From assembly GCA_005788035.1 (NCBI GenBank), contig SXZI01000063.1:27220-91219 (forward strand): DNA of 64,000 bases. The letters are read 5' to 3'. The notes beneath the pieces are model-generated. The model saw only the letters and a list, made by a program, of their open reading frames with translations, was not told where the DNA came from and did not search any database. Of the stretch, positions 1,114-49,910 are shown piece by piece. The translations under genes were made by a program, and so were the position numbers. Source of the stretch: Bacteroidota bacterium. Lineage in GTDB: Bacteria > Bacteroidota > Ignavibacteria > Kapaibacteriales > UBA961. How positions within the stretch are numbered: the stretch's first letter is position 1; every line of letters begins with the position of its first letter.

Positions 1114-3270
1114 TCATTGTACAATGAAAAGTCCGGAGGCTGATTGTAAATCACCAACAACTCTAAATGCATACATCCCGGGTATAAGTCCTGAAGGAAT
1201 AATACCATAAAATCTATTTGATCCATCCATCTTCATTTCCAATGTCGCAACTTGTTGACCTCGACTGTTAATTATATAAATGGTAGGTTGAGCTATTGAT
1301 TGAATATTGGCATATATTCTGGATTGAGATTGCGCAGGATGTGGAACTACTTCCGTAATATTTTTCACATCTTCCTCTATAGATACAGGACCAAGTAGAA
1401 TATCTGGATTAGTTCTAGGCACGAGTTTATAATTACCAAAAGAGAAATACATTATTCCTGTAATGCTTTTGATGCCTGTTCCTCGCTTTAATGCAGATTT
1501 CTCAGCTGTTGTAACGGAACCATATGTAGTAGAACCATCGTCAGTTTCGACTCGCATTTTTGATAGAGATTCTGTAGGTCCATTGTATAAAAAGCCATCA
1601 ACAATTGAAAATTCACCAAAGTTAGATGATCCATCAGCATTTGAATCAGTGACTATAACATCAGTAAAAGTTACAAGCATGCTTTCCCATTGTTCCGCTG
1701 GGAGCGTGCCTTGAGTCTTTCTGGCAAAGTCAATTGTATTTACAGTGATAGGTTGTATTTGGTCGCCATCAATACCTAACAATTTTGTTTCATTTGAATT
1801 TACGGAGTCAATACATGTTACTCCGAAGTTTTCACGTACAATACCTGAAACTTGTACTTTAGAGCCTCTGGGAAAAGCACGTACAATACTTGAAGGAGAT
1901 GTTGTACGGATGAAAAGTCCAGAATGTGGTGTTACCCCATCTTGTACATAAACTCTTGGCGCATTTACTGCAGCATTAGGAATATCTGAAGCTGAAGCTG
2001 TAACTGTACCATTTACTGTAACTGCATACCCTTCATATACGGATGAACCATTAGATGACAATCTCTCGCGAATGTCAGAGATTTTCGGCAACCTGTCAAG
2101 GACTCGATAATAGTATCCTGTTGTATCTCCTAATGGCGATTTTAATGAAAGTCCTGATTGATCATTGACTCTAATAAACCATTTAACCAAAGATGATCCA
2201 TTGACAAGCGATATAGGTGCAGGTATCGATGCAGTCCATAATGTATCATTCATTTTTTGTGCACTGACTGAATCAACAGATTTCCCATCAAAAGAGAAGT
2301 AAGCCTTTACGGAAGAGATAGGTAATGCACCTGTTTTGATTCCCATTGCTATTGGTACTATGTCTGTTTTTGACGGAAAGGCATTTACACGTGAAGAACG
2401 TACGCTTGTAATAATCGGTGGTGCAGATCCCATGTCCAATTCAAGATCATCGGGCATACCAGGTGAAATCATAAATGGTACTGGTTGTCCAGCAATTGAG
2501 TTCGAAGAAATATACCCACGAAGTTTCTTGATTTTTGTTCCTTCAGTAGGTGCATTATATGTACCTAATTGTACGGCATCTGTTCTGTAATGATTGGATT
2601 GATCACGTAAATACAATTCATTTCCTGATTCATCTGTTACGATGATTGTAGTTCTTTGATTTGTACCTTTAACTGAACTCATGACAGTAAGATTTGAGAA
2701 TTCAACCTTCATTCCCACATATTGAGCTCCACCAGCTATGTTATACATCGGACTTACAGCTTTTCCCTGATTGAACATTGACACTGATACTGAAGGTGGA
2801 GTAGGCAATGCAATACCATCATCAATGAATTCAACTATACCGGATGAAATAACTTCACCTTGAGTTGTACCTAATTTATTATTTGCGGGAAATGCCGTGA
2901 TTCTAACCGGAACTTCAATCAACTGACCTTTTTTCAATCGAATGAAATTGGATGCTGAGTTGGCAGTATCACATACAATTGGAATACCTGCAAATGAAGT
3001 TGATTTTTCATCTTGTAGATAAATAGCATGATTTCTATTTCCTGCAATCATAATTTTGCGAGTATCAGAAGGGAAGTCAACTACAGGAGGAATGGATACA
3101 ATGCCTCGTATAATCACCGTATCGCCGACTTTAGGTGAATTGAGTGTACCAGCATTCAAAGAATCAGTTGGAATAGTCATGATATCCATGATGGATCGTT
3201 TGGGAAAGTTTTGAGCAATTACTGCTGTTGACATCAATCCAATCATGCAAGAGAGTAAGAAATAAATCAT
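1114..3270 (-). CDS. Secreted hypothetical protein carrying a T9SS type-A C-terminal sorting domain.
   Basis: Start moved to Met37 (MIYFLLSCMIGLMSTAVIAQ signal peptide, ATG at 3270). C-terminus ...GMYAFRVVGDLQSASGLFIVQ resembles a Por_Secre_tail beta-sandwich. This removes the apparent overlap with the upstream gene. Confidence 0.65.
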   Translation of the reverse strand: MIYFLLSCMIGLMSTAVIAQNFPKRSIMDIMTIPTDSLNAGTLNSPKVGDTVIIRGIVSIPPVVDFPSDTRKIMIAGNRNHAIYLQDEKSTSFAGIPIVCDTANSASNFIRLKKGQLIEVPVRITAFPANNKLGTTQGEVISSGIVEFIDDGIALPTPPSVSVSMFNQGKAVSPMYNIAGGAQYVGMKVEFSNLTVMSSVKGTNQRTTIIVTDESGNELYLRDQSNHYRTDAVQLGTYNAPTEGTKIKKLRGYISSNSIAGQPVPFMISPGMPDDLELDMGSAPPIITSVRSSRVNAFPSKTDIVPIAMGIKTGALPISSVKAYFSFDGKSVDSVSAQKMNDTLWTASIPAPISLVNGSSLVKWFIRVNDQSGLSLKSPLGDTTGYYYRVLDRLPKISDIRERLSSNGSSVYEGYAVTVNGTVTASASDIPNAAVNAPRVYVQDGVTPHSGLFIRTTSPSSIVRAFPRGSKVQVSGIVRENFGVTCIDSVNSNETKLLGIDGDQIQPITVNTIDFARKTQGTLPAEQWESMLVTFTDVIVTDSNADGSSNFGEFSIVDGFLYNGPTESLSKMRVETDDGSTTYGSVTTAEKSALKRGTGIKSITGIMYFSFGNYKLVPRTNPDILLGPVSIEEDVKNITEVVPHPAQSQSRIYANIQSIAQPTIYIINSRGQQVATLEMKMDGSNRFYGIIPSGLIPGMYAFRVVGDLQSASGLFIVQ

Positions 3271-30459: not shown

Positions 30460-33400
30460 CTATTTATCCGTTTTAGGGTATAATAATGTCTGATTCCAAT
30501 ATTGACCTTGTAATGTTATTGCATACATGCCAATATTCATAGGAGGAAGTTTTACAAAATATTGTTCTCCCGAACGCATGGTGATTTGCTCATCATGTAT
30601 CGTTCTACCATCTATAGTAGTAATTCTGCAATGCATCGTTTCATTAAATGCTGAACGTAGATGAATCATATTTTCAATGATAATACATTGATAGGTTGGA
30701 AGAGCATTAATAGGCCTATATGTCCAAGCACAACCTGACATGTAAGGAATTGTACAATCTTGTAATTGGACATCGGCGCAATTCATATCCTGTTCAGCAA
30801 GTTTCAATTTGTAGGTATTTGATGTTCTTACATCATGTGGCAATAAAGGATTGAGTTGTAATTCAATTACAGAACTTTCTTGCTTTGTATTTTCAATATC
30901 TAGAAGGTATTCTCCGGTCCGTGATGGAAGTTGCTTTGCAATAACAGAACCTGACTTTATACTATGTGATTCAATTATTCCGGAAGTGGAGTCATATTCA
31001 ATAGCGAGCTTTATTTTAAAGGAGTAAGAAGGTAGGTTCAGCATAATCGGAAAACGAATACCAGGAATCATTTCTCCTGTAAAGGAAAGCGCTATCGGTA
31101 TATTAAGTGGATCTTTAACATTTATCGCCATTTCATCTGTTGCAGAGCAAAGACCATTTGAACCCGTTAACTTTACTATTATAGATTTCTTTGCATTCCT
31201 GAAAATAATTTTGTTATTGGATAGTGTATCAAATGCTTCATTGCTTTCCCAAAGGTATTGCAGCCCGCCATTTGCATTCAATTCAATATCATTACCCTTA
31301 CAAATCACTGTATCAACCGGAAGTGTAACAAGTGGTATATCTTCAACTTTTATATAGACTGAATCAGCAGATTCGCAACCATTTCTATCTCCGTTCACAA
31401 TGATCATGCCGGAAGATTTTGGCAGAATGGTAATTGAATCTTTCGATGTTGAGAGAACATTGCAATCTCCAACAACCTTCACATTAGAAGAAGGAAATAG
31501 CTGTATTACTACGTTGGAATTTCTACATACAATTGTATCTGAAGAACGGATAATTGGTAATTGTTTTTGAACTTTTACAAGTATGCTGTCAATGCTCGAT
31601 TTACAACCATCTTTGATACCCAAAAAAGAGAAGTATGTATCCATTGTTGGTTGAACGAGTAATTGATCTCCATTTTTGGACAATATTGACGGATGATCAA
31701 CCCATTCATACGTATCAGCTCCTGTTGCCTTCAATGAAGCTGTTTTGCCCAAACAGATTAAAGTGTCACCAATTACAGATATTGTTGGTTGGGGCTTAAG
31801 CGTAACAAATACACTATCCAAAACCTCGCAAGCACCATTGGAGCCTCGAACATAATACAAAGTAGAGGCATTGGGTTGAATAGAAATTTGATCACCTGTA
31901 CCAATATCGCCTAATTGACTTGTAAACCAAGAATATGAAGTAGCCCCGGTTGCTTTCAACAGGATTGAGTCTCCCTTACATACGGCAAGGTCTTGCCCGG
32001 CATCTAATGCCGGTAAAGGTAGAATGCGAATAGTAATTGAATCCGATCCTGTACAATTGCCGTTTTTTGCTTCAACATAATATGTAGTGGTTTGATTAGG
32101 GGAAAAAACAGGTTGAGATGACAATGTATCATCAATGCCATTAGGTGGATACCACCTATATGTTTGCCCGCCGGATGGTTTGATTCTAATTGGCTTTCCA
32201 GGACAAGTTGATGTATCGGAAGGCAGTGCAATTTCCAATTTATCTGCAACGGTAACATTCATGGTATCGCGAGAAGTGCATCCAGAAGAAGATGTAATTG
32301 TCAAAACATATTGCATTGAAGAAGTTGGTGTGCATGAGGGCGTTGGGCTTTTGGGATTATTCAAAAACGTAGTAGGAGACCATGAATATGAAGCCCCATT
32401 TTGAAATCCTGAACCTAAATTAATTGACTCACCGGGACAAGTAGATTGATCTTTACCAGCATCTGCAATAACAGCATCAACAACATTCACAGTTACAAAT
32501 GCAGTATCTATACAAAGTCCACTCGATACTATTACGCCATATATTGTGTTCTTATCCGGTCTGACAAGTGGGGAAGATGAAGATGTGTCTGATATATTAC
32601 TACCTTGAAACCATCTATATGTACTGCCTCCGAATGCCCTCAATTGCAGTGCATCTCCTCTACAAATAGTTGTATCAGCAGAGGTAGTTGCCGTGAGTGT
32701 ATTTTCTATCCTGACGAGCACCGTATCATAAGCTATGCAACCATAATCATTTGTTACTTTGACAATGAATGGAAAATTATTGGTTGGCGGTGAAGCGATA
32801 GTCTTTGATAGATTTGGATTTGAAACATATTGTTGAGGAGACCAGACATAAGTATATCCAGATTTTGGCTTAGATCCAATTTCTACACTACCTCCTGGAC
32901 ATGTAACTTTATCTGAACCAGCATCAGCTATTGGAAAAGGAACAACATCCACTCTTATAGGAATAGTATCAGAACAAACATTGTTTGATGCAACTAAAAA
33001 ATAAGTTGTAGATGAATCAGGGCTTGCAATAGGATTTGATATTGTTGTTGAAGATAGTCCATATGAAGGGAACCAGGAATATCTACTTGCTCCAAAAGCT
33101 TTTAACTGGACTTTTCCACCTTTACAAATGCTTGTTGGGACTTCATAAGTCACCGATACAGGAGGAAGTAGGCTAACGTGATATTGCTGTTTTATTTGAC
33201 ATCCAAATGGATTAGTAACAAAAACAGTATATGTGGTTGGCTGTGTTGGTTTTGCAATTGGATTTGCAATCATTGGATTGCTCAAACCTACAGATGGAGT
33301 CCATGAATATGTATATCCGGGTAATGATGGTGGACCAATCGTTATACCTGAACTAGGACATGCAAGAACTGAATCGCTACTTACCGCAAGATTATAGTCA

Positions 33401-34509
33401 ATCACCGAAGGTAATCCCAGAACGGTTCTACCCATATGATTCAACACATTGATTGAATATCCAATATCAGGACCGGGCATATTTGGTTTATTGATAACAT
33501 CCAATTGGCTTGGTACATCTGAGATAGCATATATCTTTCCATCTGGTCCTAATTGCAGACCGAATAATTTTCTGGTTCCGAGTGGTAAAGTCCACATTGA
33601 AGTGGCAATAGCAGCTTCGTTATTTTGAGATAAATCAAATTGAAACAATGCTGATTCTGAAGATCGTTGTTTATCCAATGTCCCTGAAGTAAATAACTTA
33701 TTACTATTCGGAGAAAATGCAGCTCCATAATTTCCATAACACTTGTTTTTGGCTATGAATTTAGGGCTTGTTGCCTGGCCTGTTTGCAAGTTGAAATCAA
33801 AAAGAACAATTGTTTGCAAATAGCTATTTCCATCGGCTTCAGATACAACAACAAGTTTAGATCCATCCGGTGATACTTTCATTGCTCCCACATTATAGAA
33901 ATTATTCAGATTACTATATGTTGAAACAACAGGATTGGTTGAAACACCCCCCGCGGTAACTTTATATGCAAGAATTCTCGATTGAGATTTATGATGATAG
34001 AGAACCCAGTATGTATTGTCGGCACAATGATATGTCCCGGCAATTTTTTCTGACATATTATCCTGGAGGACAACATTTGTCAAAAGCATAGAAGGTGCGC
34101 CTTCCAAACTTATGTGGGAATAGAATGACTTCGTTTCAGTTGCTCCAATACCTGTGAGATCAGGAGCAGTAAAAAGATAGACTCTCTGTGGATTAGCTGG
34201 ATCAGGAATGAAAATGCAACATTGGGTTGAGGAAATTCCACTTTTTATTGCATCACCGCCGGGAACTATAGTTCCATCTGCTTGATATAATTTTCTACCA
34301 TCTGAGTATAAAAGTGGATTTCCTGTTGCTGGATCGGAATGTACTGCACAACCTTCCCATGTATCCAATTTTCCTGTAATAGGTGTGGCAACTGCATTAT
34401 TGAATCTCAAACCACCAAATTTCCCAAAATACCATGTTTGATTCGGGGATTGTTGGCCAAGCAGTGTAGAAATACAAATGAGAAATATGGCAATGAACAA
34501 CTGCACCAT
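30460..34509 (-). CDS. Giant (1349 aa) secreted T9SS cargo protein with an N-terminal propeller-like region and about 10 tandem Cys-containing Ig/PKD-like repeats.
   Basis: Signal peptide. Repeating unit ...C.G..V.L.A.G...Y.W.P..GLS....P.A.P...TTY.V...N..C...D.V.V.V... (e.g. YTYSWTPSVGLSNPMIANPIAKP, YSWFPSYGLSSTTISNPIASP). C-terminal Por-type CTD ...GMYAITLQGQYWNQTLLYPKTDK. Confidence 0.7.
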   Translation of the reverse strand: MVQLFIAIFLICISTLLGQQSPNQTWYFGKFGGLRFNNAVATPITGKLDTWEGCAVHSDPATGNPLLYSDGRKLYQADGTIVPGGDAIKSGISSTQCCIFIPDPANPQRVYLFTAPDLTGIGATETKSFYSHISLEGAPSMLLTNVVLQDNMSEKIAGTYHCADNTYWVLYHHKSQSRILAYKVTAGGVSTNPVVSTYSNLNNFYNVGAMKVSPDGSKLVVVSEADGNSYLQTIVLFDFNLQTGQATSPKFIAKNKCYGNYGAAFSPNSNKLFTSGTLDKQRSSESALFQFDLSQNNEAAIATSMWTLPLGTRKLFGLQLGPDGKIYAISDVPSQLDVINKPNMPGPDIGYSINVLNHMGRTVLGLPSVIDYNLAVSSDSVLACPSSGITIGPPSLPGYTYSWTPSVGLSNPMIANPIAKPTQPTTYTVFVTNPFGCQIKQQYHVSLLPPVSVTYEVPTSICKGGKVQLKAFGASRYSWFPSYGLSSTTISNPIASPDSSTTYFLVASNNVCSDTIPIRVDVVPFPIADAGSDKVTCPGGSVEIGSKPKSGYTYVWSPQQYVSNPNLSKTIASPPTNNFPFIVKVTNDYGCIAYDTVLVRIENTLTATTSADTTICRGDALQLRAFGGSTYRWFQGSNISDTSSSSPLVRPDKNTIYGVIVSSGLCIDTAFVTVNVVDAVIADAGKDQSTCPGESINLGSGFQNGASYSWSPTTFLNNPKSPTPSCTPTSSMQYVLTITSSSGCTSRDTMNVTVADKLEIALPSDTSTCPGKPIRIKPSGGQTYRWYPPNGIDDTLSSQPVFSPNQTTTYYVEAKNGNCTGSDSITIRILPLPALDAGQDLAVCKGDSILLKATGATSYSWFTSQLGDIGTGDQISIQPNASTLYYVRGSNGACEVLDSVFVTLKPQPTISVIGDTLICLGKTASLKATGADTYEWVDHPSILSKNGDQLLVQPTMDTYFSFLGIKDGCKSSIDSILVKVQKQLPIIRSSDTIVCRNSNVVIQLFPSSNVKVVGDCNVLSTSKDSITILPKSSGMIIVNGDRNGCESADSVYIKVEDIPLVTLPVDTVICKGNDIELNANGGLQYLWESNEAFDTLSNNKIIFRNAKKSIIVKLTGSNGLCSATDEMAINVKDPLNIPIALSFTGEMIPGIRFPIMLNLPSYSFKIKLAIEYDSTSGIIESHSIKSGSVIAKQLPSRTGEYLLDIENTKQESSVIELQLNPLLPHDVRTSNTYKLKLAEQDMNCADVQLQDCTIPYMSGCAWTYRPINALPTYQCIIIENMIHLRSAFNETMHCRITTIDGRTIHDEQITMRSGEQYFVKLPPMNIGMYAITLQGQYWNQTLLYPKTDK

Positions 34510-34564: not shown

Positions 34565-35686
34565 TTATTTTGTTTGAGGGTAGAATACTAATAAATCATC
34601 GGGGATTTGGATCTCGGCCAATTCAGCTACCTGTATAAAATCCACTGGCGGGGGTTGTTCAAAAAGGAGATGTTCTTGTGTAATTGGATGTTGAAAACCC
34701 AGAATCCTTGCATGAAGTGCTTGTCTTTTCATGATTTCAAGGCATTCCTGAGCCTTTCTTTTCAAAGCTGTAGACTTTATTCCGGTATAAGCAATAGCAT
34801 TTCCTCCATATGAGACATCGCCAATCAATGGATGATGTATGCTCGAACAATGGACTCTTATCTGATGTGTTCTTCCTGTATGAAGTTTTACTTGAAGAAG
34901 GGAAGCGAAATGCCCCCTTGATCGTGTTACATATTCAGTTTTTGCTATTTTCCCCCCTTTATTTACCACAGAAAATATTTTTCGGTTTCTCGGCGAGGGA
35001 GCTAGCTGATTTTCTATTATATCATGATCTTTTTTTACGATTCCCCATGCCAATGCAACATATTCTCTTTGCACTGTTCTATCTGCAAATTGTTTAGTGA
35101 GTTGGGGTGTAATTGAACTTTGTTTTGATATAACCATTAAACCCGAAGTATCCTTATCCAATCTATGAACGATACCAGGTCGGAGTATATCATCACTTAT
35201 ATTGACAGCATCAATGAAATCATCTACAGGTAATGATATCTCTGATTCATCTTCTTCTTCGCTATATCCAAGCAGTGGTATAGCTTCTCGATGTCCAATA
35301 TGCCAAAGAACCGCATTGACCAATGTCCCATACCTGTTTCCAAAACCTGGATGGACAACAAGTCCTGCAGGTTTATTGATGACAAGTAAATATTCATCTT
35401 CATATAATATTGAGAGAGGAATATCTTCTGGAAGCAATTCCAATGGTGGTGGGCGCATAAATACACAGGTGATTACATCTCCCGGTTTAACTTTGTATGA
35501 ACCCTTTCTAGCAATACCATCTACATGCACTTGCTCATTGTCAATAGCAAGCTGAACCTTGTTACGAGTTGCATTTGCAATGGCATTGGTTATATATACA
35601 TCGAGTCTTATTGGTTCTTGACCTTTGGATACGATGAGTTCAATTGTCTTTTCAACATAATCAGGATATTGATTATTACTGTCCAC
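34565..35686 (-). CDS. rluD: RluA-family 23S rRNA pseudouridine synthase (RluD-like) with an S4 domain.
   Basis: S4 N-terminus. Catalytic HRLDKDTSGLMV motif. Confidence 0.8.
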   Translation of the reverse strand: MDSNNQYPDYVEKTIELIVSKGQEPIRLDVYITNAIANATRNKVQLAIDNEQVHVDGIARKGSYKVKPGDVITCVFMRPPPLELLPEDIPLSILYEDEYLLVINKPAGLVVHPGFGNRYGTLVNAVLWHIGHREAIPLLGYSEEEDESEISLPVDDFIDAVNISDDILRPGIVHRLDKDTSGLMVISKQSSITPQLTKQFADRTVQREYVALAWGIVKKDHDIIENQLAPSPRNRKIFSVVNKGGKIAKTEYVTRSRGHFASLLQVKLHTGRTHQIRVHCSSIHHPLIGDVSYGGNAIAYTGIKSTALKRKAQECLEIMKRQALHARILGFQHPITQEHLLFEQPPPVDFIQVAELAEIQIPDDLLVFYPQTK

Positions 35687-36290
35687 CTTGCTCCTTGATT
35701 TCTAAATTTGGCGGTTTAGCCGTAAATGGATAAGGTAGATGCTTATTGAACAAGATGAGCAAAATCATGCCTGATGTAACACATGAATCGGCTACGTTAA
35801 ATACTGGCCAATGAGTGTAGGTCAAAGTTCCTATTGTTATATCGGGTATGTCGATTTGTATAAAATCCACCACCAACCCATAGAACAGAGGACCCTCTTC
35901 ATATAGTACACCGTAAAACATTCGATCAATAAAGTTTCCGAATGCGCCGGCCAGAATAAGCATTATTGCAATGCGTATCCATCTATTGGCATTACTGATA
36001 ACTCTGAGATAATACGCCAAAGCAAATGAAGCAACTAGTGAAAATAATGTTAAGACTATTTTCCCTGAACCAAACTCGACTCCAAAAGCCATTCCTGGAT
36101 TTTCAACAAAAGTTATGCGAACAATTTCACCAAATACAGGGAAGCTCTCGCCTAAATGCATGCCTTCATGGTGAAAACCAAAGAGATTATATCCCTTAAC
36201 AGCTACCTTTGTGATCTGGTCAATTAGAACAAGTACAAAAGCCGCTATAAGATATGATAATGTTTGCCCGGATGTGGACTGCCGAATCAT
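35676..36290 (-). CDS. lspA: Lipoprotein signal peptidase (signal peptidase II).
   Basis: Four TM helices. Conserved FNVADS and catalytic Asp regions. Confidence 0.8.
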   Translation of the reverse strand: MIRQSTSGQTLSYLIAAFVLVLIDQITKVAVKGYNLFGFHHEGMHLGESFPVFGEIVRITFVENPGMAFGVEFGSGKIVLTLFSLVASFALAYYLRVISNANRWIRIAIMLILAGAFGNFIDRMFYGVLYEEGPLFYGLVVDFIQIDIPDITIGTLTYTHWPVFNVADSCVTSGMILLILFNKHLPYPFTAKPPNLEIKEQGGQ

Positions 36291-37273
36291 TCATTTCTAC
36301 CGGAAATTATATCAACTCCGTTTGCAGGACATCTTCCATGTATCTTAAATGAAGCCGATTGAGTCGTAATTGGAACAGCAAGCAGACGGGCCTTAGCAAT
36401 GAGAATATTACATTCTTTACAAATACCATATGTTTTATCATCAATGCGCTTTAATGCATCATCAAGTTTCTTGATATAATCAATGATTCTATTCATCTGA
36501 GCATATGTCTTTTCCTTTTCAAGTGCTTCAGAACCTTGCTCAGCCATGTGTACTGAATAAATCATTGTTTCAGAAGCCAACTCTGCATTTGTAAGATCCT
36601 CCAAACGCTCTCTGAGCATACGCATTTCATCCAAAGCATCTTCTTTGATCTTCAATATATGTTGCTTGAACATCTTGAGATCAGATTCTGAATAACGAAC
36701 CTTCTTTTTGGATGGGATGATTATTGGTTTTTCCTCTTTTGGTCGCATCGCAAATGCAGCAGCTCCTTTTCCTTCTGGCATTTTCATAGCCTCGAGGCCA
36801 GCAGCAGTTGGTTTTTCCGAAGCCTTATTACCAGACTTGGATCTACCGGCCGGCTTCTTCTCTTGAAGATTCAGTTGAAGAGGTGGCATTGGAATTCCCA
36901 AATCAATTATTGGTTCATCCGGTATAGGCATCACTTCTGGCTGTGCTGCTTTGCCTTTCTTTGTTTCTTCGGACTTTACATTTTTTTCAGATTTTGAACT
37001 TGCTTTTTCTTTTAGGGGCATAATGCTCTTTTGATCAGCAGCCTTATTTGGCTTGACCGTAGCTTTTGTTTTTGTGGTGACTGGCGGCTTTGAAGTAGAA
37101 ATACCTTTCTTTGAAACAGAAAGCGAAGCCGATTGCTTCGGAGTTGCCGATTTGGCACTCTTAACAATTGGCTTCGCTTGTTTTTTTCCGGCTTTGGCTG
37201 AAACAGCCGCCGAAGATGACTTCGCAACCTTTTTAGATGAAACAGGAGACTTGCCGACAATTGTTTTTGCCAA
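36287..37273 (-). CDS. DksA/TraR-family protein with a roughly 250-aa Lys/Ala/Ser/Pro-rich histone-H1-like N-terminal extension.
   Basis: C-terminal coiled-coil plus CKECN(x17) finger region. The second Cys pair is replaced (SASF...HGRC), so the zinc finger is degenerate. The N-terminal two-thirds are basic low-complexity (KKVAKSSSAAVSAKAGKKQAKPIVK...). Confidence 0.6.
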   Translation of the reverse strand: MAKTIVGKSPVSSKKVAKSSSAAVSAKAGKKQAKPIVKSAKSATPKQSASLSVSKKGISTSKPPVTTKTKATVKPNKAADQKSIMPLKEKASSKSEKNVKSEETKKGKAAQPEVMPIPDEPIIDLGIPMPPLQLNLQEKKPAGRSKSGNKASEKPTAAGLEAMKMPEGKGAAAFAMRPKEEKPIIIPSKKKVRYSESDLKMFKQHILKIKEDALDEMRMLRERLEDLTNAELASETMIYSVHMAEQGSEALEKEKTYAQMNRIIDYIKKLDDALKRIDDKTYGICKECNILIAKARLLAVPITTQSASFKIHGRCPANGVDIISGRNE

Positions 37274-37329
37274 TGGCTTTACCTGCTTCTTGGTTGTGAC
37301 TTTAGCAGATTTCGGTCCTTTACTAGGAC

Positions 37330-37698
37330 TTACTTTTTTTTTACGGCTGCTTTCTTAGCTGCCGGTCTTGCTGCTTTTTTTGCTGCCGGCTTTGCTGCTT
37401 TCTTAGCTGCCGGTTTTGCCGCTACTTTCTTTGCTGCCGGCTTTGCTGCTTTCTTTGCTGCCGGCTTTGCTGCTTTTTTTGCTGCTGGTTTTGCAGCTTT
37501 CTTAGCAGCTGGTTTTGCTGCTTTCTTTACTGCGGGCTTCGCAGCTTTCTTTGCTGCAGGTTTCGCAGCTTTCTTAGCAGCTGGTTTAGCTGCTTTCTTA
37601 ACAGCTGGTTTAGCTGCTTTCTTGGCAGCTGGTTTAGCCGCTTTCTTAGCAGCTGGTTTAGCCGCTTTCTTTGCTGCGGGTTTCTTAGTTGAGGCCAT
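37330..37698 (-). CDS. Histone H1 / AlgP-like basic repeat protein (about 13 AAKKAAKP units).
   Basis: MASTKKPAAKKAAKPAAKKAAKP.... Near-perfect 8-aa tandem repeats encoded by 24-bp DNA repeats. Own promoter element upstream. Confidence 0.6.
   Translation of the reverse strand: MASTKKPAAKKAAKPAAKKAAKPAAKKAAKPAVKKAAKPAAKKAAKPAAKKAAKPAVKKAAKPAAKKAAKPAAKKAAKPAAKKAAKPAAKKVAAKPAAKKAAKPAAKKAARPAAKKAAVKKK
37350..37685 (-). repeat. Coding tandem repeat, 24-bp unit (GCTGCCGGCTTTGCTGCTTTCTTT-like) in about 13-14 copies.
   Basis: Direct 24-nt periodicity visible in the sequence. In-frame with the H1-like CDS. Confidence 0.8.
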
Positions 37699-37728
37699 AC
37701 AGCATACACCTTAAATAATAAAACAAAA

Positions 37729-37736
37729 CAAAACTA
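37729..37736 (-). promoter_or_regulatory. Candidate -7 element (TAGTTTTG on the minus strand) for the H1-like/dksA/lspA/rluD transcription unit.
   Basis: Plus-strand CAAAACTA lies about 30 nt upstream of the H1-like ATG and matches TAnnTTTG on the coding strand. Confidence 0.3.
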
Positions 37737-37766
37737 AATGCGGGATGCATTTATTTTTTCTGTTAC

Positions 37767-40700
37767 TCAATGAAACTTTGTGATGTTGACAAGGATAATG
37801 TCTTGTTCGATTTCAAGTGTGTGAACATCTTCACTCAAATGTTCAACATATTCACAACTTGTGCACAAAATTTCATTACAAACATAATCAGATAATTTGA
37901 TAATTGCATCACAAATTTCTTTTGATGCAAAAAATTTTACAATTACTCTATCAGTAACATGCAGTCCGATACTCTTTCTTAGGTTCTGAATTCTGTTTAC
38001 AAATTCGCGTGCTATGCCTTCTTGTTTTAAAGATTCATCAATTTCAGTATCAAGCGCAACTGTCAAAGAACCTTCATTCGCTACAAGCCAACCTTCCATG
38101 TCTTGTGTCATGACATCCACTTCATCCAAATTGATCAGTTGATCATTTCCATCAAGAGAAATGAGTAAGGATTGATCTTGAATCAATGATTTGATTTGTT
38201 GTTCATTCAAAGTGGAAATGATTGTAGCCACTGTTTGAGTTTGTTTGCCAAATCTCTTGCCCAATGCCTTGAAATTGGCTTTTACAGACCTTTTAACGAC
38301 ACCTGCTTCTTCACTGACATATTCCACTTCTTTAATATTTATCTCATCTTTGATGATTGATTCAACAGCTTGAATATCCCTTCTTTGTTGAGGAGAAATC
38401 ACCGGAATCAGTATTCTTCGAAGGGGCTGTCGAGTCTTGATTTTTGATTTTTCACGGAGTGATCTGGCCAAGAACACTATTGTTTGAGCCAAAGACATTC
38501 TTCTTTCCAAATCAACATCTATCAAAGACAATTCACCAGGGGATAATAGTCTCATGTGAATTGATTCGACATCCGAGTTCACTCGTAATCTTTTGAATAA
38601 GACCTCGGGTAAAAATGGTGCCGCGGGAGCCATCATGGACAATACATGAATTGTCACATCTCTTAACGTTTGATAAGCGGCGAGTTTATCACTATCCTTT
38701 TCACCCTTCCAAAATCTTCTCCGATTCCTTCTTACATACCAGTTTGAAACATCATTTATCATGAATTCTTGAACAATCCTGCAAGCTCTGAATACATCAT
38801 ATGCCTCCATATACTGATGATATTGACGAAGCACTGTATGAACTCTGGAAATAATCCATTTGTCTATTTCGGGCCGTTCATTATTAGGAATTATGCCCTC
38901 ATTTCCATCAATTTGATCGATATTGGCATAAAGAGCATAAAAGGAGTAAGTATTGGTCAATGTTCGGAAAAAGTCTGCAATGACAGTCTTTGCGATGTCT
39001 GATTCATTGAACAATGTTGGCCTCCAAGGTGGATTATTCACCATGAAATACCAACGAACAGCATCCGCGCCATATAGGTCCATCATCTGAAATGGATCAA
39101 CGGTATTACCCCTACTTTTTGACATTTTCAGACCGTTTTTATCCAAAACGAGTTCATTAACGATAATATTTTTGAATGCCGGCTTATCGAATAATGCAGT
39201 TGCTATATTATGAAGAGTGTAAAACCACCCTCTTGTCTGATCTATACCTTCGGATATAAAATCGGCAGGGAATTGAGATGAGAAAAGTTCTACATTTTCA
39301 AATGGATAATGAAATTGTGCAAAAGGAACACATCCAGAATCAAACCAAACATCAATGACTTCGGTTGTTCTACGATACACTTTGCCATTTTTTCTGAAAA
39401 TCACATTATCAACAAATGGCCTATGTAAATCCAAGGGCAAAGGGGCTTCCGGCACAGGAACAATAGAACCATCAGGGCATTCATATTCTCCCTTTGACAA
39501 CTCCTCGATCGATCCGACGGCAAACATGTCTTCTTTGTCTTCACTAATCCAAATAGGCAATGGAGTACCCCAATATCTATCTCTACTGAGAGACCAATCC
39601 TTGACTTCTTCCAACCAATTGCCGAATCGACCAGTACCGATTTCCTGTGGTTGCCAATGTATTGTCTTATTAAGATCAATCATTGACTTCTTATAAGAGG
39701 GTGACTTTATGAACCAGGAATTTCTAGCATAATACATCACAGGATTATCAGTTCGCCAACAATGAGGATAACTGTGCACATAATCAAATGATGATTTATA
39801 GATCTTTTTTGCTGTCTTTAATGCAATGATGATATCTTTATCGGAACCTTCCTCAACATGATCTGCATACTTGAAGGTTTTGATTGCTCTGCCGGCAAAA
39901 GGTGTAATCTCTTGGGTAAAATGTCCATTGGGCGTCACAGGCTGCAAAACCGGTAAATCGAATTTCTTTGACAATTCAAAGTCATCAACACCAAAAGCAG
40001 GGGATATATGAACAACTCCTGTCCCGTCTTCAGTTGATACAAATGATCCCGGCAAAATTGTCAAAGCATTCGGATGAACATTTTTGTCAATATGACAATA
40101 AGGGAAAATCTGCTCATACGAAGATCCTATGATATCTTTACCCTTAAAAGTCTTGATGATCGAGATCCCTTCACCAAGTAAACCTTGTAATGAATGAGCT
40201 ATTACATAATATTCAGGATTGGAATCTACATGTTTCACCTCGGCAAGCACATAGTCGATATCTTCACCAACAGCCAAGGCAACATTTGAAAAGAGAGTCC
40301 AAGGGGTTGTTGTCCAAACTAAAATTGAAGCATTGACCAATTCTTGAATTGGTGACTGTACGATGGCAAGCTTCAAATAGACACTGGGATCTTTCACTTC
40401 CCGATAGCCTAATGAAAGCTCATGGGAGCTTAGTGGTGTTTCAATTGTAGGGGATTGCGGAACAACTTTGTAGCCCTTATAAATAAGCCCTTTATCAAAA
40501 AAAGACTTCAATGCCCACCAGACAGACTCAACATATTCATTTGTGCAAGTTACATAAGCAGTTTTCATGTCGACCCAGTAACCCATACGCTTAGTAAACT
40601 CGCCCCAACCCATGTCTCTTTCTATATTGCTATAAACGAAGTCTCTGCATGTGGCATTGAATCTATCAATACCCATAACTTCAATTTCAGATTTGTTAAC

Positions 40701-41006
40701 AAGGCCTAATTGTTTTTCAACGGCAATTTCGACGGGTAAACCATGCGTATCCCATCCGGCTTGACGACGTACAAAATGATTTGTCATCGTTTTATAACGA
40801 CAAACAAGGTCTTTGTCAGTTCTTGCCATTAAATGATGAATGCCAGGATTACCATTGACGGTTGGAGGGCCCTCAAAAAAACTAAAGACAGGTGAATCTT
40901 TTCGCGCTGAAAGCGTTTGTTCGAATATTTGACGCTCATCCCAAAAGGCAAGGATTTCCTTTTCCAATTCAGGATAATGTAGTTTTTCGGGTAAGGGTTG
41001 ATACAT
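37767..41006 (-). CDS. ileS: Isoleucine--tRNA ligase (type 2).
   Basis: 1079 aa. HIGH-region PPTVNGNPGIHH. KMSKSRGN. Editing and anticodon-binding domains present. Confidence 0.9.
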   Translation of the reverse strand: MYQPLPEKLHYPELEKEILAFWDERQIFEQTLSARKDSPVFSFFEGPPTVNGNPGIHHLMARTDKDLVCRYKTMTNHFVRRQAGWDTHGLPVEIAVEKQLGLVNKSEIEVMGIDRFNATCRDFVYSNIERDMGWGEFTKRMGYWVDMKTAYVTCTNEYVESVWWALKSFFDKGLIYKGYKVVPQSPTIETPLSSHELSLGYREVKDPSVYLKLAIVQSPIQELVNASILVWTTTPWTLFSNVALAVGEDIDYVLAEVKHVDSNPEYYVIAHSLQGLLGEGISIIKTFKGKDIIGSSYEQIFPYCHIDKNVHPNALTILPGSFVSTEDGTGVVHISPAFGVDDFELSKKFDLPVLQPVTPNGHFTQEITPFAGRAIKTFKYADHVEEGSDKDIIIALKTAKKIYKSSFDYVHSYPHCWRTDNPVMYYARNSWFIKSPSYKKSMIDLNKTIHWQPQEIGTGRFGNWLEEVKDWSLSRDRYWGTPLPIWISEDKEDMFAVGSIEELSKGEYECPDGSIVPVPEAPLPLDLHRPFVDNVIFRKNGKVYRRTTEVIDVWFDSGCVPFAQFHYPFENVELFSSQFPADFISEGIDQTRGWFYTLHNIATALFDKPAFKNIIVNELVLDKNGLKMSKSRGNTVDPFQMMDLYGADAVRWYFMVNNPPWRPTLFNESDIAKTVIADFFRTLTNTYSFYALYANIDQIDGNEGIIPNNERPEIDKWIISRVHTVLRQYHQYMEAYDVFRACRIVQEFMINDVSNWYVRRNRRRFWKGEKDSDKLAAYQTLRDVTIHVLSMMAPAAPFLPEVLFKRLRVNSDVESIHMRLLSPGELSLIDVDLERRMSLAQTIVFLARSLREKSKIKTRQPLRRILIPVISPQQRRDIQAVESIIKDEINIKEVEYVSEEAGVVKRSVKANFKALGKRFGKQTQTVATIISTLNEQQIKSLIQDQSLLISLDGNDQLINLDEVDVMTQDMEGWLVANEGSLTVALDTEIDESLKQEGIAREFVNRIQNLRKSIGLHVTDRVIVKFFASKEICDAIIKLSDYVCNEILCTSCEYVEHLSEDVHTLEIEQDIILVNITKFH

Positions 41007-47844: not shown

Positions 47845-48270
47845 ATGGAAGACAAAAAAGCAGAAAATATCCTAGTCTTGGATTTGTCAAAATCAGATGG
47901 CGCTCCGGCTGAATACTTTGTCATTGGGTCTTGTTTATCTGAAGTTCAAGTCGATTCAGTCTCTTCTGCAGTAGAACGTGGGGGAAAAGAAGCCGGACAA
48001 GGTTTTCCTAAATCTGAAGGTTGGGATGCTAGACAATGGGTTATTTTGGATTATTTTGATGTTGTAGTTCATGTGTTTCATGCAGATGCTCGTGACTTTT
48101 ACAGAATCGAAAAACTCTGGAGTGATGCTGATTTCTATACTTTAAAAGAAGATAAGCTTTCGAAAATGACGAAGACAGCAAAACAGACATATCTCACTGA
48201 ATTATCAAAAGAACGTAGACTACCAGAACGCTTTAATCAAGCTTCCTCATTTGAGGAGGATTTTTTATGA
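47845..48270 (+). CDS. rsfS: Ribosome silencing factor RsfS (Iojap).
   Basis: ENILVLDLSK ... DYFVIGSCLSEVQVDSV ... WVILDYFDVVVHVF. Start chosen at MEDKK; the track start at 47764 gives an atypical extension. Confidence 0.7.
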   Translation: MEDKKAENILVLDLSKSDGAPAEYFVIGSCLSEVQVDSVSSAVERGGKEAGQGFPKSEGWDARQWVILDYFDVVVHVFHADARDFYRIEKLWSDADFYTLKEDKLSKMTKTAKQTYLTELSKERRLPERFNQASSFEEDFL

Positions 48271-49910
48271 TGCATACTTTCATCGAATCTTCTTTTCAAC
48301 AGGCTCTTGATGCAATGGGTATTGAACATCAAACGATTGCATTTGAAAGACCCAAAGTTGCTGAGCATGGTCATATGTCAACTAACATTGCCATGGTCCT
48401 TGCAAAGCAATTGAAAAAAAAACCACAGGATATAGCTCAAGAAATATTATCTCAATTGCAATATGATACAAGCTTTGTTCAATCTTTAGAAATAGCAGGC
48501 GCAGGTTTTATAAATATAAAATTCCAACCGAATGCCTTTCATCAAGCCATGCAAATAATGATGGGAAAAAAAAGGGATTTAGGAAAAACAACAGTCGGTT
48601 CCGGTAAAACAGCAAATATCGAATATGTCAGTGCCAATCCAACTGGGAAATTACATTTAGGGCATGGTAGAAATGCAGCTATTGGGGATACAGTGGCTAA
48701 TCTCTTGGAATGGTCCGGTTATAAGGTTACTCGTGAATATTATTTCAACAATGCCGGCAATCAAATGAATTTGTTGGCAGCATCTATTTATGCTCGATAT
48801 CGACATCTGATAGGTGATAATGAGTACCAATTTCCTGAAGATGGTTATCATGGTGAATATATTGCTGACATAGCTCAACAAGCATTGGATCTTCACGGAA
48901 AACAGTTAGCAGTTGAAAATCAAGATCATATTGAAATTTGCAAGAAATTAGGTGAGGAATGGTGTTTTTCATCAATTCTAGAAACATTGAAAAAAATGAA
49001 TATCCATCAGGATACATATTTCAATGAAGACTCCTTATTTACCGATGGCACTATTGCATCATTATTGAGTGAATTGAAAGAAAAGGGTCTGTCATATGAG
49101 AAAGATGGTGCAACATGGATGAAATTCTCTTCTATTGATGAATCACTCACGGACAGAGTTATCGTGAAAAGTTCCGGCGAACCAACATACCGATTGCCAG
49201 ATATTGCCTATCATCGGACGAAATTTGAAAGAGGCTATGACTTGATAGTCGATATCTTCGGCGCTGATCACATTGCGACCATACCGGATGTAAAAGCAGG
49301 AATACAAGCCCTGGGATATGATGTTTCGAAGCTCAAAGTACTCATTTATCAATTTGTAACGCTTTGGGATAATGGCGAACAAGTAAAGATGTCTAAAAGA
49401 TCAGGCAAAAGTTATACACTTGATGAACTTATAGATGAAGTTGGAGCTGATGTTGTCAGGTTTTTCTTTATCATGCGAGGGGCTCAAACCCAATTGGAAT
49501 TTGATCTTCAGATAGCACGAGAGCAAAATGATAAAAATCCAGTGTATTATCTTCAATATGTCCATGCAAGAATATGCTCGCTTATACAACAAGTACACGA
49601 TCATGATAAGCAAGTTCTCGAACATCCGGATCTTTCTACTTTGACTCATCCTTCTGAAATCACTTTAATTGGTACCCTAACTCGATTTGAGGAAGTGGCA
49701 ATAAGAGCTGCACATCATCTTGAACCACAAATGTTGGCTGAATATTTACGAGAAGTCGCATCTGCATTTCATTCTTTCTATCATGATTGCAGAATACTGG
49801 GTTCTGAGCATGCTGTTTTGTCAGCTAGAGTGCATTTAGCATTATTAACAAAAACCGTCATGAATAATGGATTGACAATTTTAGGAATTTCATCACCCGA
49901 ATCAATGTAA
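48267..49910 (+). CDS. argS: Arginine--tRNA ligase.
   Basis: SANPTGKLHLGHGRNAAIGD (HIGH) and KMSKRSGK. Confidence 0.9.
   Translation: MMHTFIESSFQQALDAMGIEHQTIAFERPKVAEHGHMSTNIAMVLAKQLKKKPQDIAQEILSQLQYDTSFVQSLEIAGAGFINIKFQPNAFHQAMQIMMGKKRDLGKTTVGSGKTANIEYVSANPTGKLHLGHGRNAAIGDTVANLLEWSGYKVTREYYFNNAGNQMNLLAASIYARYRHLIGDNEYQFPEDGYHGEYIADIAQQALDLHGKQLAVENQDHIEICKKLGEEWCFSSILETLKKMNIHQDTYFNEDSLFTDGTIASLLSELKEKGLSYEKDGATWMKFSSIDESLTDRVIVKSSGEPTYRLPDIAYHRTKFERGYDLIVDIFGADHIATIPDVKAGIQALGYDVSKLKVLIYQFVTLWDNGEQVKMSKRSGKSYTLDELIDEVGADVVRFFFIMRGAQTQLEFDLQIAREQNDKNPVYYLQYVHARICSLIQQVHDHDKQVLEHPDLSTLTHPSEITLIGTLTRFEEVAIRAAHHLEPQMLAEYLREVASAFHSFYHDCRILGSEHAVLSARVHLALLTKTVMNNGLTILGISSPESM

Follow-up and report, generated by a model that had tools for sequence, protein, structure and literature searches.

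The nucleoid protein DdbA (SCO2075) of Streptomyces coelicolor combines an H1-like and a DksA-like part (PMC3643593). Its N-terminal domain binds and condenses DNA, and the protein affects nucleoid condensation, supercoiling and ppGpp-related phenotypes (PMC3643593). DdbA is encoded by a single open reading frame (ORF) for which no frameshift is mentioned, and its authors found orthologues in streptomycetes only (PMC3643593). By gene numbering, ddbA is placed between ileS (SCO2076, PMC3276577) and lsp (SCO2074, PMC4941574). In this work we analyzed a 64-kb stretch of contig SXZI01000063.1 (the window, a term that refers here to the whole stretch) which carries, in a slot like that of ddbA, two ORFs in different frames; one encodes a tail of lysine, alanine and proline (K/A/P) repeats and the other a DksA-like domain. 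From a comparison of related sequences we conclude, with a probability of about 0.8, that both ORFs are parts of one gene (37698..36287, minus strand) that would be read in two frames by conserved programmed -1 recoding at a run of A residues. DdbA is the closest known protein to the predicted product of this gene; the likeness is one of architecture and slot. In contrast to the single ORF of ddbA, the window gene occupies two frames; DdbA has five (S/T)(A/T)AKK repeats, a canonical C4 zinc finger and aspartates equivalent to D71/D74, whereas the window gene encodes 14 PAAKKAAK units and its family shows a CxxC...HxxC zinc lobe and a YS-HMAEQGSE tip.

Only a few non-mobile genes of bacterial chromosomes contain conserved programmed frameshifts, the classic cases being prfB and dnaX. 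In Thermus thermophilus dnaX, a run of nine A residues (A9) drives transcriptional slippage, with about 50% of the product shifted; selection against such runs usually becomes apparent at 9 nt (PMC1088944). In the Chlorobi, dnaX consists of two ORFs joined at an A10 run, an arrangement that has been read as transcriptional realignment (PMC3711429), and in Escherichia coli the dnaX product is shifted by a ribosomal -1 frameshift at A_AAA_AAG (PMC5009743, PMC4066793). The window gene resembles these genes in having A9/A10 or A_AAA_AAG within a chromosomal non-mobile gene for which two products are known or, here, predicted (PMC3711429, PMC1088944, PMC5009743). It belongs to a different gene family, however, and its shift would be needed to make the conserved domain at all, given that the zero-frame product is a low-complexity tail only; furthermore, no stimulatory Shine-Dalgarno (SD) element or hairpin like those of E. 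coli dnaX was found. The locus joins two kinds of system that are already known, the genes with programmed slippage on poly-A and the DdbA-type architecture. We found no description of recoding in a DksA-like gene in the literature, including the DdbA paper (PMC3643593) and the GeneTack survey (PMC3711429), and a large review on recoding (PMC5009743) makes no mention of DksA, TraR or zinc finger.

Other proteins share single traits with this gene. The chlamydial Hc2 and Hc1 proteins and AlgP of Pseudomonas have a tandem repeat composition rich in K/A/P, like the window tail, but the latter is the zero frame of a DksA-like gene and not a dedicated stand-alone gene. The CarD protein of Anaeromyxobacter dehalogenans joins a module that binds RNA polymerase (RNAP) to an H1-like DNA-binding tail required for function (PMC2919716), which is similar to the predicted fusion; CarD differs in its unrelated RNAP-binding fold (CarD_CdnL_TRCF), in the C-terminal position of its tail and in being made without recoding. 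With regard to YlyA/YteA of Bacillus subtilis, yteA is the best NCBIfam match of the window domain, but these proteins have neither an H1-like tail nor a frameshift. In B. subtilis, ylyA is located between ileS and lspA. The role of YlyA/YteA in RNAP regulation is poorly defined (PMC3113569).

The gene in the window comprises the following features:

37330..37698, minus strand: ORF1, the zero frame, a 122-aa H1-like K/A/P-repeat tail with its ATG at 37698 and TAA at 37332-37330
37346..37683, minus strand: tandem array made of 14 copies of a 24-bp repeat, each coding for a unit of the PAAKKAAK type (Tandem Repeats Finder)
37333..37342, minus strand: slippery site, an A9 run (37342..37334) and then G, directly before TAA, with the heptamer A_AAA_AAG in the zero frame
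36287..37354, minus strand: ORF2, the -1 frame, with KKK at the run, a basic linker of ~200 aa rich in S/T/K/P and the DksA-like domain; stop at 36289-36287
36290..36730, minus strand: C-terminal domain of DksA fold, 147 aa, a coiled-coil hairpin and a CxxC...HxxC zinc lobe (NCBIfam, AlphaFold2, Foldseek)

The 3' end of ORF1 is GCC GTA AAA AAA AAG TAA, and the same junction reads CGT AAA AAA AAA GTA AGT in the -1 frame, which is open from position 37354, four codons 5' of the A9 run, through to the stop codon of the DksA-like domain. In the public annotation ORF2 begins at the TTG in 37273 and encodes 328 aa, of which the first 195 are rich in K/S/T/A/P; the 19 codons that separate the TAA from this TTG encode VSPSKGPKSAKVTTKKQVKP, so that the basic tail carries on beyond the stop codon. 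A -1 shift at the run, or one A added to the mRNA, would give a 470-aa protein formed by the tail, the linker and the DksA-like domain, with AAVKKKVSPSKGPK in its junction peptide and, within its first 325 residues, 91 K+R against 15 D+E. The initial annotation placed the repeat ORF between ileS and the ORF that matches DksA/TraR, followed by lspA, a position that we confirmed in the window. It also considered this ORF an independent gene inserted upstream of dksA and overlooked its key feature, the A9 run adjoining the stop codon; instead, the repeat ORF appears to be the 5' frame of the dksA-like gene, given that the -1 frame is open at the run in the window and in the other species with the same layout, 30 in all.

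This layout was surveyed with a profile of the DksA-like domain in metagenome-assembled genomes (MAGs) of Kapabacteria/Ignavibacteria, which are placed under Bacteroidota at NCBI. From 210 genome hits, 80 species-representative loci were retrieved and classified along with the window, for a total of 81. In 30 of the 81 species-level loci the gene is split, i.e. it shows a repeat ORF, an A-run and the DksA domain in the -1 frame; two more (L033 and L036) are probably split, having the same layout interrupted by an N-gap or a contig edge. In 38 loci a single ORF carries an initial M, a K-rich tail and the DksA domain in one frame, and the remaining complete loci are short, without a tail, and have only a short N-terminus before the domain. 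The upstream ORF of the split loci starts with M-A-[AS]-[AT]-K-K, continues with K/A/P repeats and is 42-168 aa long. The run is A9 in six species (the clade of the window), A10 in 23 and A11 in one; the A9-clade junction is GTA AAA AAA AAG TAA, and a typical A10 junction is GCA AAA AAA AAA GCC AAG TAA. In the split loci the zero-frame stop is found 0-9 nt (0-3 codons) past the run and the base after the run is G in 28 of the 30 species, while the DksA frame is -1 in all 30.

No start codon 3' of the run is conserved among the 30 split species. The TTG at which ORF2 is annotated in the window has no counterpart in L019, L022 or L023, nor anywhere in the A10 clade; the first ATG, GTG or TTG appears 71 codons past the run in L048, L054 and L060, and 107 codons past it in L019, and in eight split species there is not a single ATG between the run and the domain. 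Even so, the frame stays open, the indels of the linker are multiples of three, and the run is followed directly by a conserved peptide, which is KKKSQVRVTPNSAK in A10-clade and KKKVSPSKGPK in A9-clade species.

The codons used at the junction differ from those used elsewhere in the gene. In the A10/A11 clade, with a GC content of 48-58% at the locus, 90% of the Lys codons of the tail outside the run are AAG (the mean fraction of AAA, fAAA, is 0.10), and yet the Lys codons of the junction are AAA AAA AAA in 24 of 24 species. Among the single-ORF relatives (n=36), several of which are very AT-rich, none of the 51 KKK tripeptides of the tail is encoded as A9, and the longest A-run does not exceed 8 in 35 of the 36; in-phase A_AAA_AAG heptamers are present in four of these relatives (L035, L040, L049 and L056). 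In the split loci, on the other hand, the junction run is always at least 9 nt long. AAA AAA AAA is kept against codon usage in the A10/A11 clade and A9 is avoided in the single-ORF genes, which indicates that long A-runs are held where a change of frame is needed. In addition, the 22-nt junction is invariant across the six A9-clade species, while the proportion of synonymous differences (pS) in the DksA domain reaches ~0.76. Purifying selection acts on the nucleotides of the slip sequence to a degree that coding alone would not require. These data fit a rule by which A-runs of at least 9 nt are used for slippage and runs of up to 8 nt are tolerated. For the DksA domain, the ratio of nonsynonymous to synonymous differences (pN/pS) against L019-L023 is 0.04-0.12, with pS up to 0.76 and synonymous sites near saturation; three pairs from the A10 clade were left out since their sequences were mis-registered (amino acid identity 0.04-0.12). 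The low pN/pS implies that the downstream ORF is functional and is not decaying.

Relatives with other layouts show what the undivided protein looks like. In the single-ORF proteins P0086, P0094, P0115 and P0040 the tail and the DksA domain are in one frame, and P0086 and P0115 pass the gathering scores of both Pfam HC2 and zf-dksA. Three loci from sister species, L025-L027, show 76% identity in the domain and have no repeat tail, linker or A-run, which suggests that the tail, the linker and the slip site were cleanly deleted; their DksA ORF starts ~90 nt before position 3001. The single DksA ORF of these loci begins with MA[AS]TKK, as the repeat ORF of the window does, hence this N-terminus belongs to a DksA-like protein. 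The presence of an H1-like and a DksA-like part in one polypeptide is direct in the single-ORF relatives, and in the window it would hold only if the -1 shift occurs. The DdbA-type architecture of "histone plus DksA", which was thought to be specific to streptomycetes, is also found at the ileS-lsp slot in the FCB (Fibrobacteres-Chlorobi-Bacteroidetes) group, and the split, fused and tail-less clades make a clean comparative data set. The annotation can be corrected in dozens of MAGs, where the DksA-like gene has been called from arbitrary internal starts and the tail has been called an orphan hypothetical protein or missed.

The junction was also followed in independent data. The exact 328-aa ORF is present on at least 23 contigs of independent assemblies (MEGAHIT contigs and NCBI MAGs), the junction GTAAAAAAAAAGTAA is identical in the eight loci retrieved from independent assemblies, and in a scan of Joint Genome Institute (JGI) metagenome contigs the A9 junction was found 22 times and an in-frame A10 version of the window-clade junction was found 0 times. 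In a collection of 5.8 billion sequences no protein spans the junction: 32 clusters match the linker, with lengths of 214-336 aa, and none covers the tail. This word-seeded search is not exhaustive, given that the domain query missed P0122, the representative of the cluster of the window protein, which was found with the linker query. No fused member was found within that cluster, where the largest listed protein has 331 aa (40 of the 48 members were read and 15 listed). An assembly or sequencing artefact, a risk already raised in the initial annotation, was rejected, with the same junction in eight independent assemblies and 22 JGI contigs and the same layout in 30 species. The uniform A9 state together with the lack of a junction-spanning protein makes both sequencing error and phase variation at the DNA level unlikely.

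Several explanations other than recoding can be put forward for this layout. Each ORF could be a gene in its own right: an H1-like gene that stands alone and was inserted between ileS and dksA, followed by a DksA/TraR gene that starts at the TTG in 37273 or later. Gene callers and NCBI do annotate two ORFs, the zero-frame product is a free H1-like peptide under either model, and the window, L020 and L021 share a TTG or GTG 23 codons past the run with a weak AGGT 7 nt upstream. We consider this explanation very unlikely, because L019, L022, L023 and the A10 clade do not share the start codon and eight species lack an ATG before the domain, all 30 loci have a -1 frame that is open at the run and continues into a conserved peptide, the homopolymer persists in spite of codon usage, and there are relatives with one ORF, among which L025-27 carry the N-terminus of the tail ORF directly on the DksA domain. 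Alternatively, the A-run could be a contingency tract in which slippage during replication toggles the gene between a fused (ON) and a split (OFF) state. Single-base runs of 9-10 nt mutate at a very high rate, and phase-variation switches made of poly-A are known (PMC3711429), but a toggling tract should show both states, whereas 30 species, eight MAG/ENA contigs and 22 JGI contigs are all out-of-frame, with no contig carrying the in-frame A10 junction and no junction-spanning protein; among the explanations considered here, this is the least probable.

It could also be argued that the split reflects an ancestral frameshift mutation or a sequencing error, and that the gene is a decaying pseudogene or is rescued incidentally by leaky slippage. 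Homopolymer indels are the commonest way to split a gene, and the existence of single-ORF relatives makes a fused ancestor plausible. Rescue of homopolymer indels by infidelity of the polymerase at poly(A) is known from endosymbionts. Nevertheless, the pN/pS of 0.04-0.12 of the DksA domain with saturated synonymous sites, the persistence of the split with an intact run in at least 30 species of two clades and the agreement of independent Illumina assemblies render this account extremely improbable, and an incidental rescue that has been selected for so long would be programmed slippage in all but name.

Some observations weigh against a programmed recoding of this gene. At the TTG or GTG of the window, L020 and L021, with its weak AGGT, some independent initiation of a tail-less product may occur. 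The variable sites of the linker are distributed 14/14/24 over the three codon positions, a modest bias in a fast-evolving linker. The window clade is AT-rich and AAA is the commoner Lys codon in it (fAAA 0.5-0.8), thus an A9 run by itself carries little statistical weight in this clade, and it is the A10 clade that supplies the strong statistic. Apart from the junction, the window holds a single homopolymer of at least 9 nt, an A9 at 48414-48422 (plus strand) in the argS ORF (48267-49910, 547 aa), which is read in frame as L-KKK-P in an unsplit ORF, and so A9 runs are tolerated within an essential gene. The neighbour-joining tree of the domain places the A10 loci in a single clade of 26 members and the A9 loci in a second one, of seven members, which is sister to the short forms L025-27, and the two split clades are set apart by tail-less forms; the split layout may have arisen once or twice. 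Finally, no conserved stimulatory SD-like element or hairpin was found around the site, a result that weakens only the ribosomal version of the shift.

According to the recoding model, standard decoding from the ATG in 37698 would proceed through the 14 repeat units to the TAA past the A9 run, and release a free and very basic H1-like polypeptide of 122 aa. A fraction of the expression events would enter the -1 frame at the run, either because RNAP slips on the T9 template and adds one extra A to the mRNA (programmed transcriptional realignment), the route that we favour, or because the ribosome slips -1 on A_AAA_AAG. Both routes would give the 470-aa protein, in which the H1-like tail is followed by the ~200-aa basic linker and the DksA-fold domain, and how much tail is free relative to the tethered factor would be determined by the split. 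That slippage takes place, and with it the ratio of the products, we infer from the sequences compared. If Streptomyces DdbA is taken as a guide, the tail would be a non-specific binder and condenser of DNA, and would tether a factor of the RNAP secondary channel to the nucleoid.

The transcriptional route is favoured because the run is never shorter than 9 nt, runs of A7-A8 including A_AAA_AAG are tolerated in the fused relatives, and there is no conserved stimulatory structure at the site. A purely ribosomal shift, in which the ribosome would make a programmed -1 slip on A_AAA_AAG or A_AAA_AAA in the manner of E. coli dnaX, is possible although rather doubtful. In the window clade the heptamer that is optimal in E. 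coli, A_AAA_AAG, is in phase with the stop codon directly after it, and a small hairpin (GUCCU-AGUAA-AGGAC) is found 3 nt downstream, where the local fold has a z-score of -2.5. Against a purely ribosomal event, the run is always at least 9 nt though 7 would do, and fused relatives tolerate in-phase A_AAA_AAG heptamers; besides, RNAalifold predicted 0 pairs at the slip site of the A10 clade, and the A9-clade junction shows only small invariant hairpins with 0 compensatory changes, the hairpin of the window clade being without covariation and weaker in L019, L020 and L022. The transcriptional and the ribosomal routes may both contribute.

As a further possibility, which we regard as quite unlikely, the poly-A run could act as a regulatory sensor, with pools of nucleoside triphosphates (GTP), the occupancy of RNAP by the factor, or both, setting the amount of tail-tethered DksA-like factor. 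In such a scheme slippage would depend on a pause of RNAP before the next nucleotide is added, as well as on the state of its secondary channel; if true, it would represent a transcription-fidelity feedback on a factor of the stringent-response type, and the free H1-like peptide would be the nucleoid protein made by default. On an A9 run in E. coli (lacI-A9), GreA/B lower slippage and DksA has no effect (PMC4666387). The latter result argues against a simple autoregulation, and a DksA-like factor acting on its own slippage is a weakened candidate.

With respect to the repeat ORF, its product consists of MASTKK, 14 units of the P-A-A-K-K-A-A-K type and AAVKKK before the stop codon. The array (37346-37683) has a period of 24, 14.0 copies, 84% matches and a score of 355 in Tandem Repeats Finder. 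The periodicity of 24 bp is therefore as first described, whereas the count of about 13 perfect repeats is not: PAAKKAAK is exact in 10 of the 14 units, the remainder being two PAVKKAAK, one PAAKKVAAK and one PAAKKAAR, and at the DNA level no adjacent pair is identical and the mean pairwise identity is 0.81. The variable columns among units comprise seven of the eight third codon positions, one first and two second positions; this concentration at third positions is the signature of a translated repeat under selection on the protein, and supports the earlier proposal that the 122-aa ORF (37330..37698, minus strand, with its ATG) is real and coding. As was also anticipated, the copy number varies, with 11, 14 or 15 units in near-identical MAGs and 10-18 across the 22 JGI contigs. 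Locus L002 (5618-5944) is a scaffold with an N-gap within the repeat array, and P0129, P0132, P0134 and P0135 are "partial" MAG proteins from contigs that end near the repeats. The gap and the contig ends imply that the array is hard to assemble from short reads, and because of this a part of the variation of 10-18 units may be assembly noise.

The window tail does not match the HC2 (PF07382) and Hc1 profiles, HC2 not even at E<=1; in Pfam it gives only sub-threshold matches to Cornifin and DUF4816, and an NCBIfam search gave 0 families. The resemblance to H1, Hc2 and AlgP put forward in the initial annotation holds for composition and does not extend to a profile match with HC2, Hc1 or another curated family, so "H1-like", as applied to this tail, is a statement on composition and not on homology. 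Nor could the tail be traced as a protein family, since a database search for homologues returned only compositional look-alikes, mostly K/A/P tails on ribosomal proteins. Among these, P0136-P0146, from metagenomes, have similar tails on the ribosomal proteins L17, L29 and L30, and on DUF1508 and SWIB-domain proteins; K/A/P-rich tails seem to recur as additions to proteins that bind nucleic acids. Two further ORFs overlap the array, one of 60 aa (37527-37709, minus strand) and one of 101 aa (37053-37358, plus strand), both Q/R/L-rich readings that are off-frame or antisense, and in L010-L013 a 138-aa antisense ORF over the linker has been called as a gene. The off-frame and antisense ORFs over the array and the linker are almost certainly not genes.

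The DksA-like domain was examined by profile and structure comparisons. Residues 196-308 of the 328-aa protein match NCBIfam yteA (E=3e-16) and dksA (E=1e-10). PF01258 gives 21.7 bits against the window protein, below its gathering score of 24.9, over profile positions 2-26 of 36 only, and among the relatives three of four pass (25.1-29.6 bits) with P0094 just under the cut-off (24.7). The AlphaFold2 model of the domain has a pLDDT of 81 and shows two long helices (residues 15-53 and 61-97) along with a small zinc lobe. Its best Foldseek matches are DksA2 of P. aeruginosa (4ijj, TM 0.67/0.76) and E. coli DksA (1tjl and 7khi), RNAP-bound DksA included, with TM values of 0.6-0.76, and a profile search against the PDB found Chlamydia DksA (6ptg, E=9e-11). 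The zinc ligands C104, C107, H131 and C134 are invariant and of the CCHC type, in contrast to the C4 finger of PF01258 (CxxC-x17-CxxC). The DxxDxA motif of the tip (D71/D74/A76 in E. coli) is not present in the window domain, where the invariant tip is Y58 S59 x H61 M62 A63 E64 Q65 G66 S67 E68 (YS-HMAEQGSE); this resembles the tip of Chlamydia DksA, YSQHQADQGTD. The domain is of DksA fold, closest to the YteA/YlyA and Chlamydia type, and not a canonical DksA.

Around the gene, the order on the minus strand is ileS, tail/DksA, lspA and rluD, and the following features were identified:

37767..41006, minus strand: ileS, the upstream neighbour, a class-I tRNA synthetase of 1079 aa (PF00133, PF08264, PF19302)
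37721..37752, minus strand: weak terminator-like hairpin (AAATGC-ATCCC-GCATTT) and T-rich tract 3' of ileS, containing TAGTTTTG
37707..37712, minus strand: SD-like AAGGTG, 8 nt before the ATG of ORF1, with a counterpart (GAGGT, AGGAG or AAGG) in nearly all related loci
35676..36290, minus strand: lspA (signal peptidase II), downstream, PF01252 E=4e-35, its start overlapping the stop of ORF2 (ATGA)

An SD-like GAGGT, AAGGT or AGGAG is widely conserved 6-10 nt before the ATG of the tail ORF, which supports this ATG as the true start of the gene. With regard to its transcription, an element of the TAnnTTTG type at 37729-37736 had been proposed as a promoter. The match exists (TAGTTTTG, 37736..37729, minus strand; the ATG follows at a distance of 38 nt), but it is placed inside the T-rich tract that follows the hairpin, and a role as promoter was not supported: TAnnTTTG occurs in 15 of 73 upstream regions against a background of 5%, and among the split loci only in the near-identical A9 clade, where the intergenic region is nearly identical, and in 0 of 24 A10-clade loci. 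No sigma-70-type promoter for the tail ORF was found on the minus strand upstream of the ATG, where matches are no more frequent than in shuffled sequence, and matches to Rfam families in the region are at chance level (E >=0.2, with scores far under gathering). The hairpin at 37721..37752 has a fold z-score of only -1.1 and was not flagged by the terminator scan. In the A10-clade loci (e.g. L043, 2620-2680), a conserved GC-rich hairpin GTGCG[TC]C-AAGGTG-GCGCAC followed by GCGTTTTCA is found between ileS and the tail ORF, and represents a stronger terminator-like element than that of the window clade; its presence implies that in this clade the tail/DksA gene needs its own promoter or read-through of the terminator.

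Downstream of rluD, an ORF of 1349 aa (30460-34509, minus strand) contains many Ig-like repeats with CxxG motifs (weak Pfam Ig_7). This ORF is kept at the same place in related loci, although some assemblies (L002, L006) do not have it called as a single gene and list just short ORFs there.

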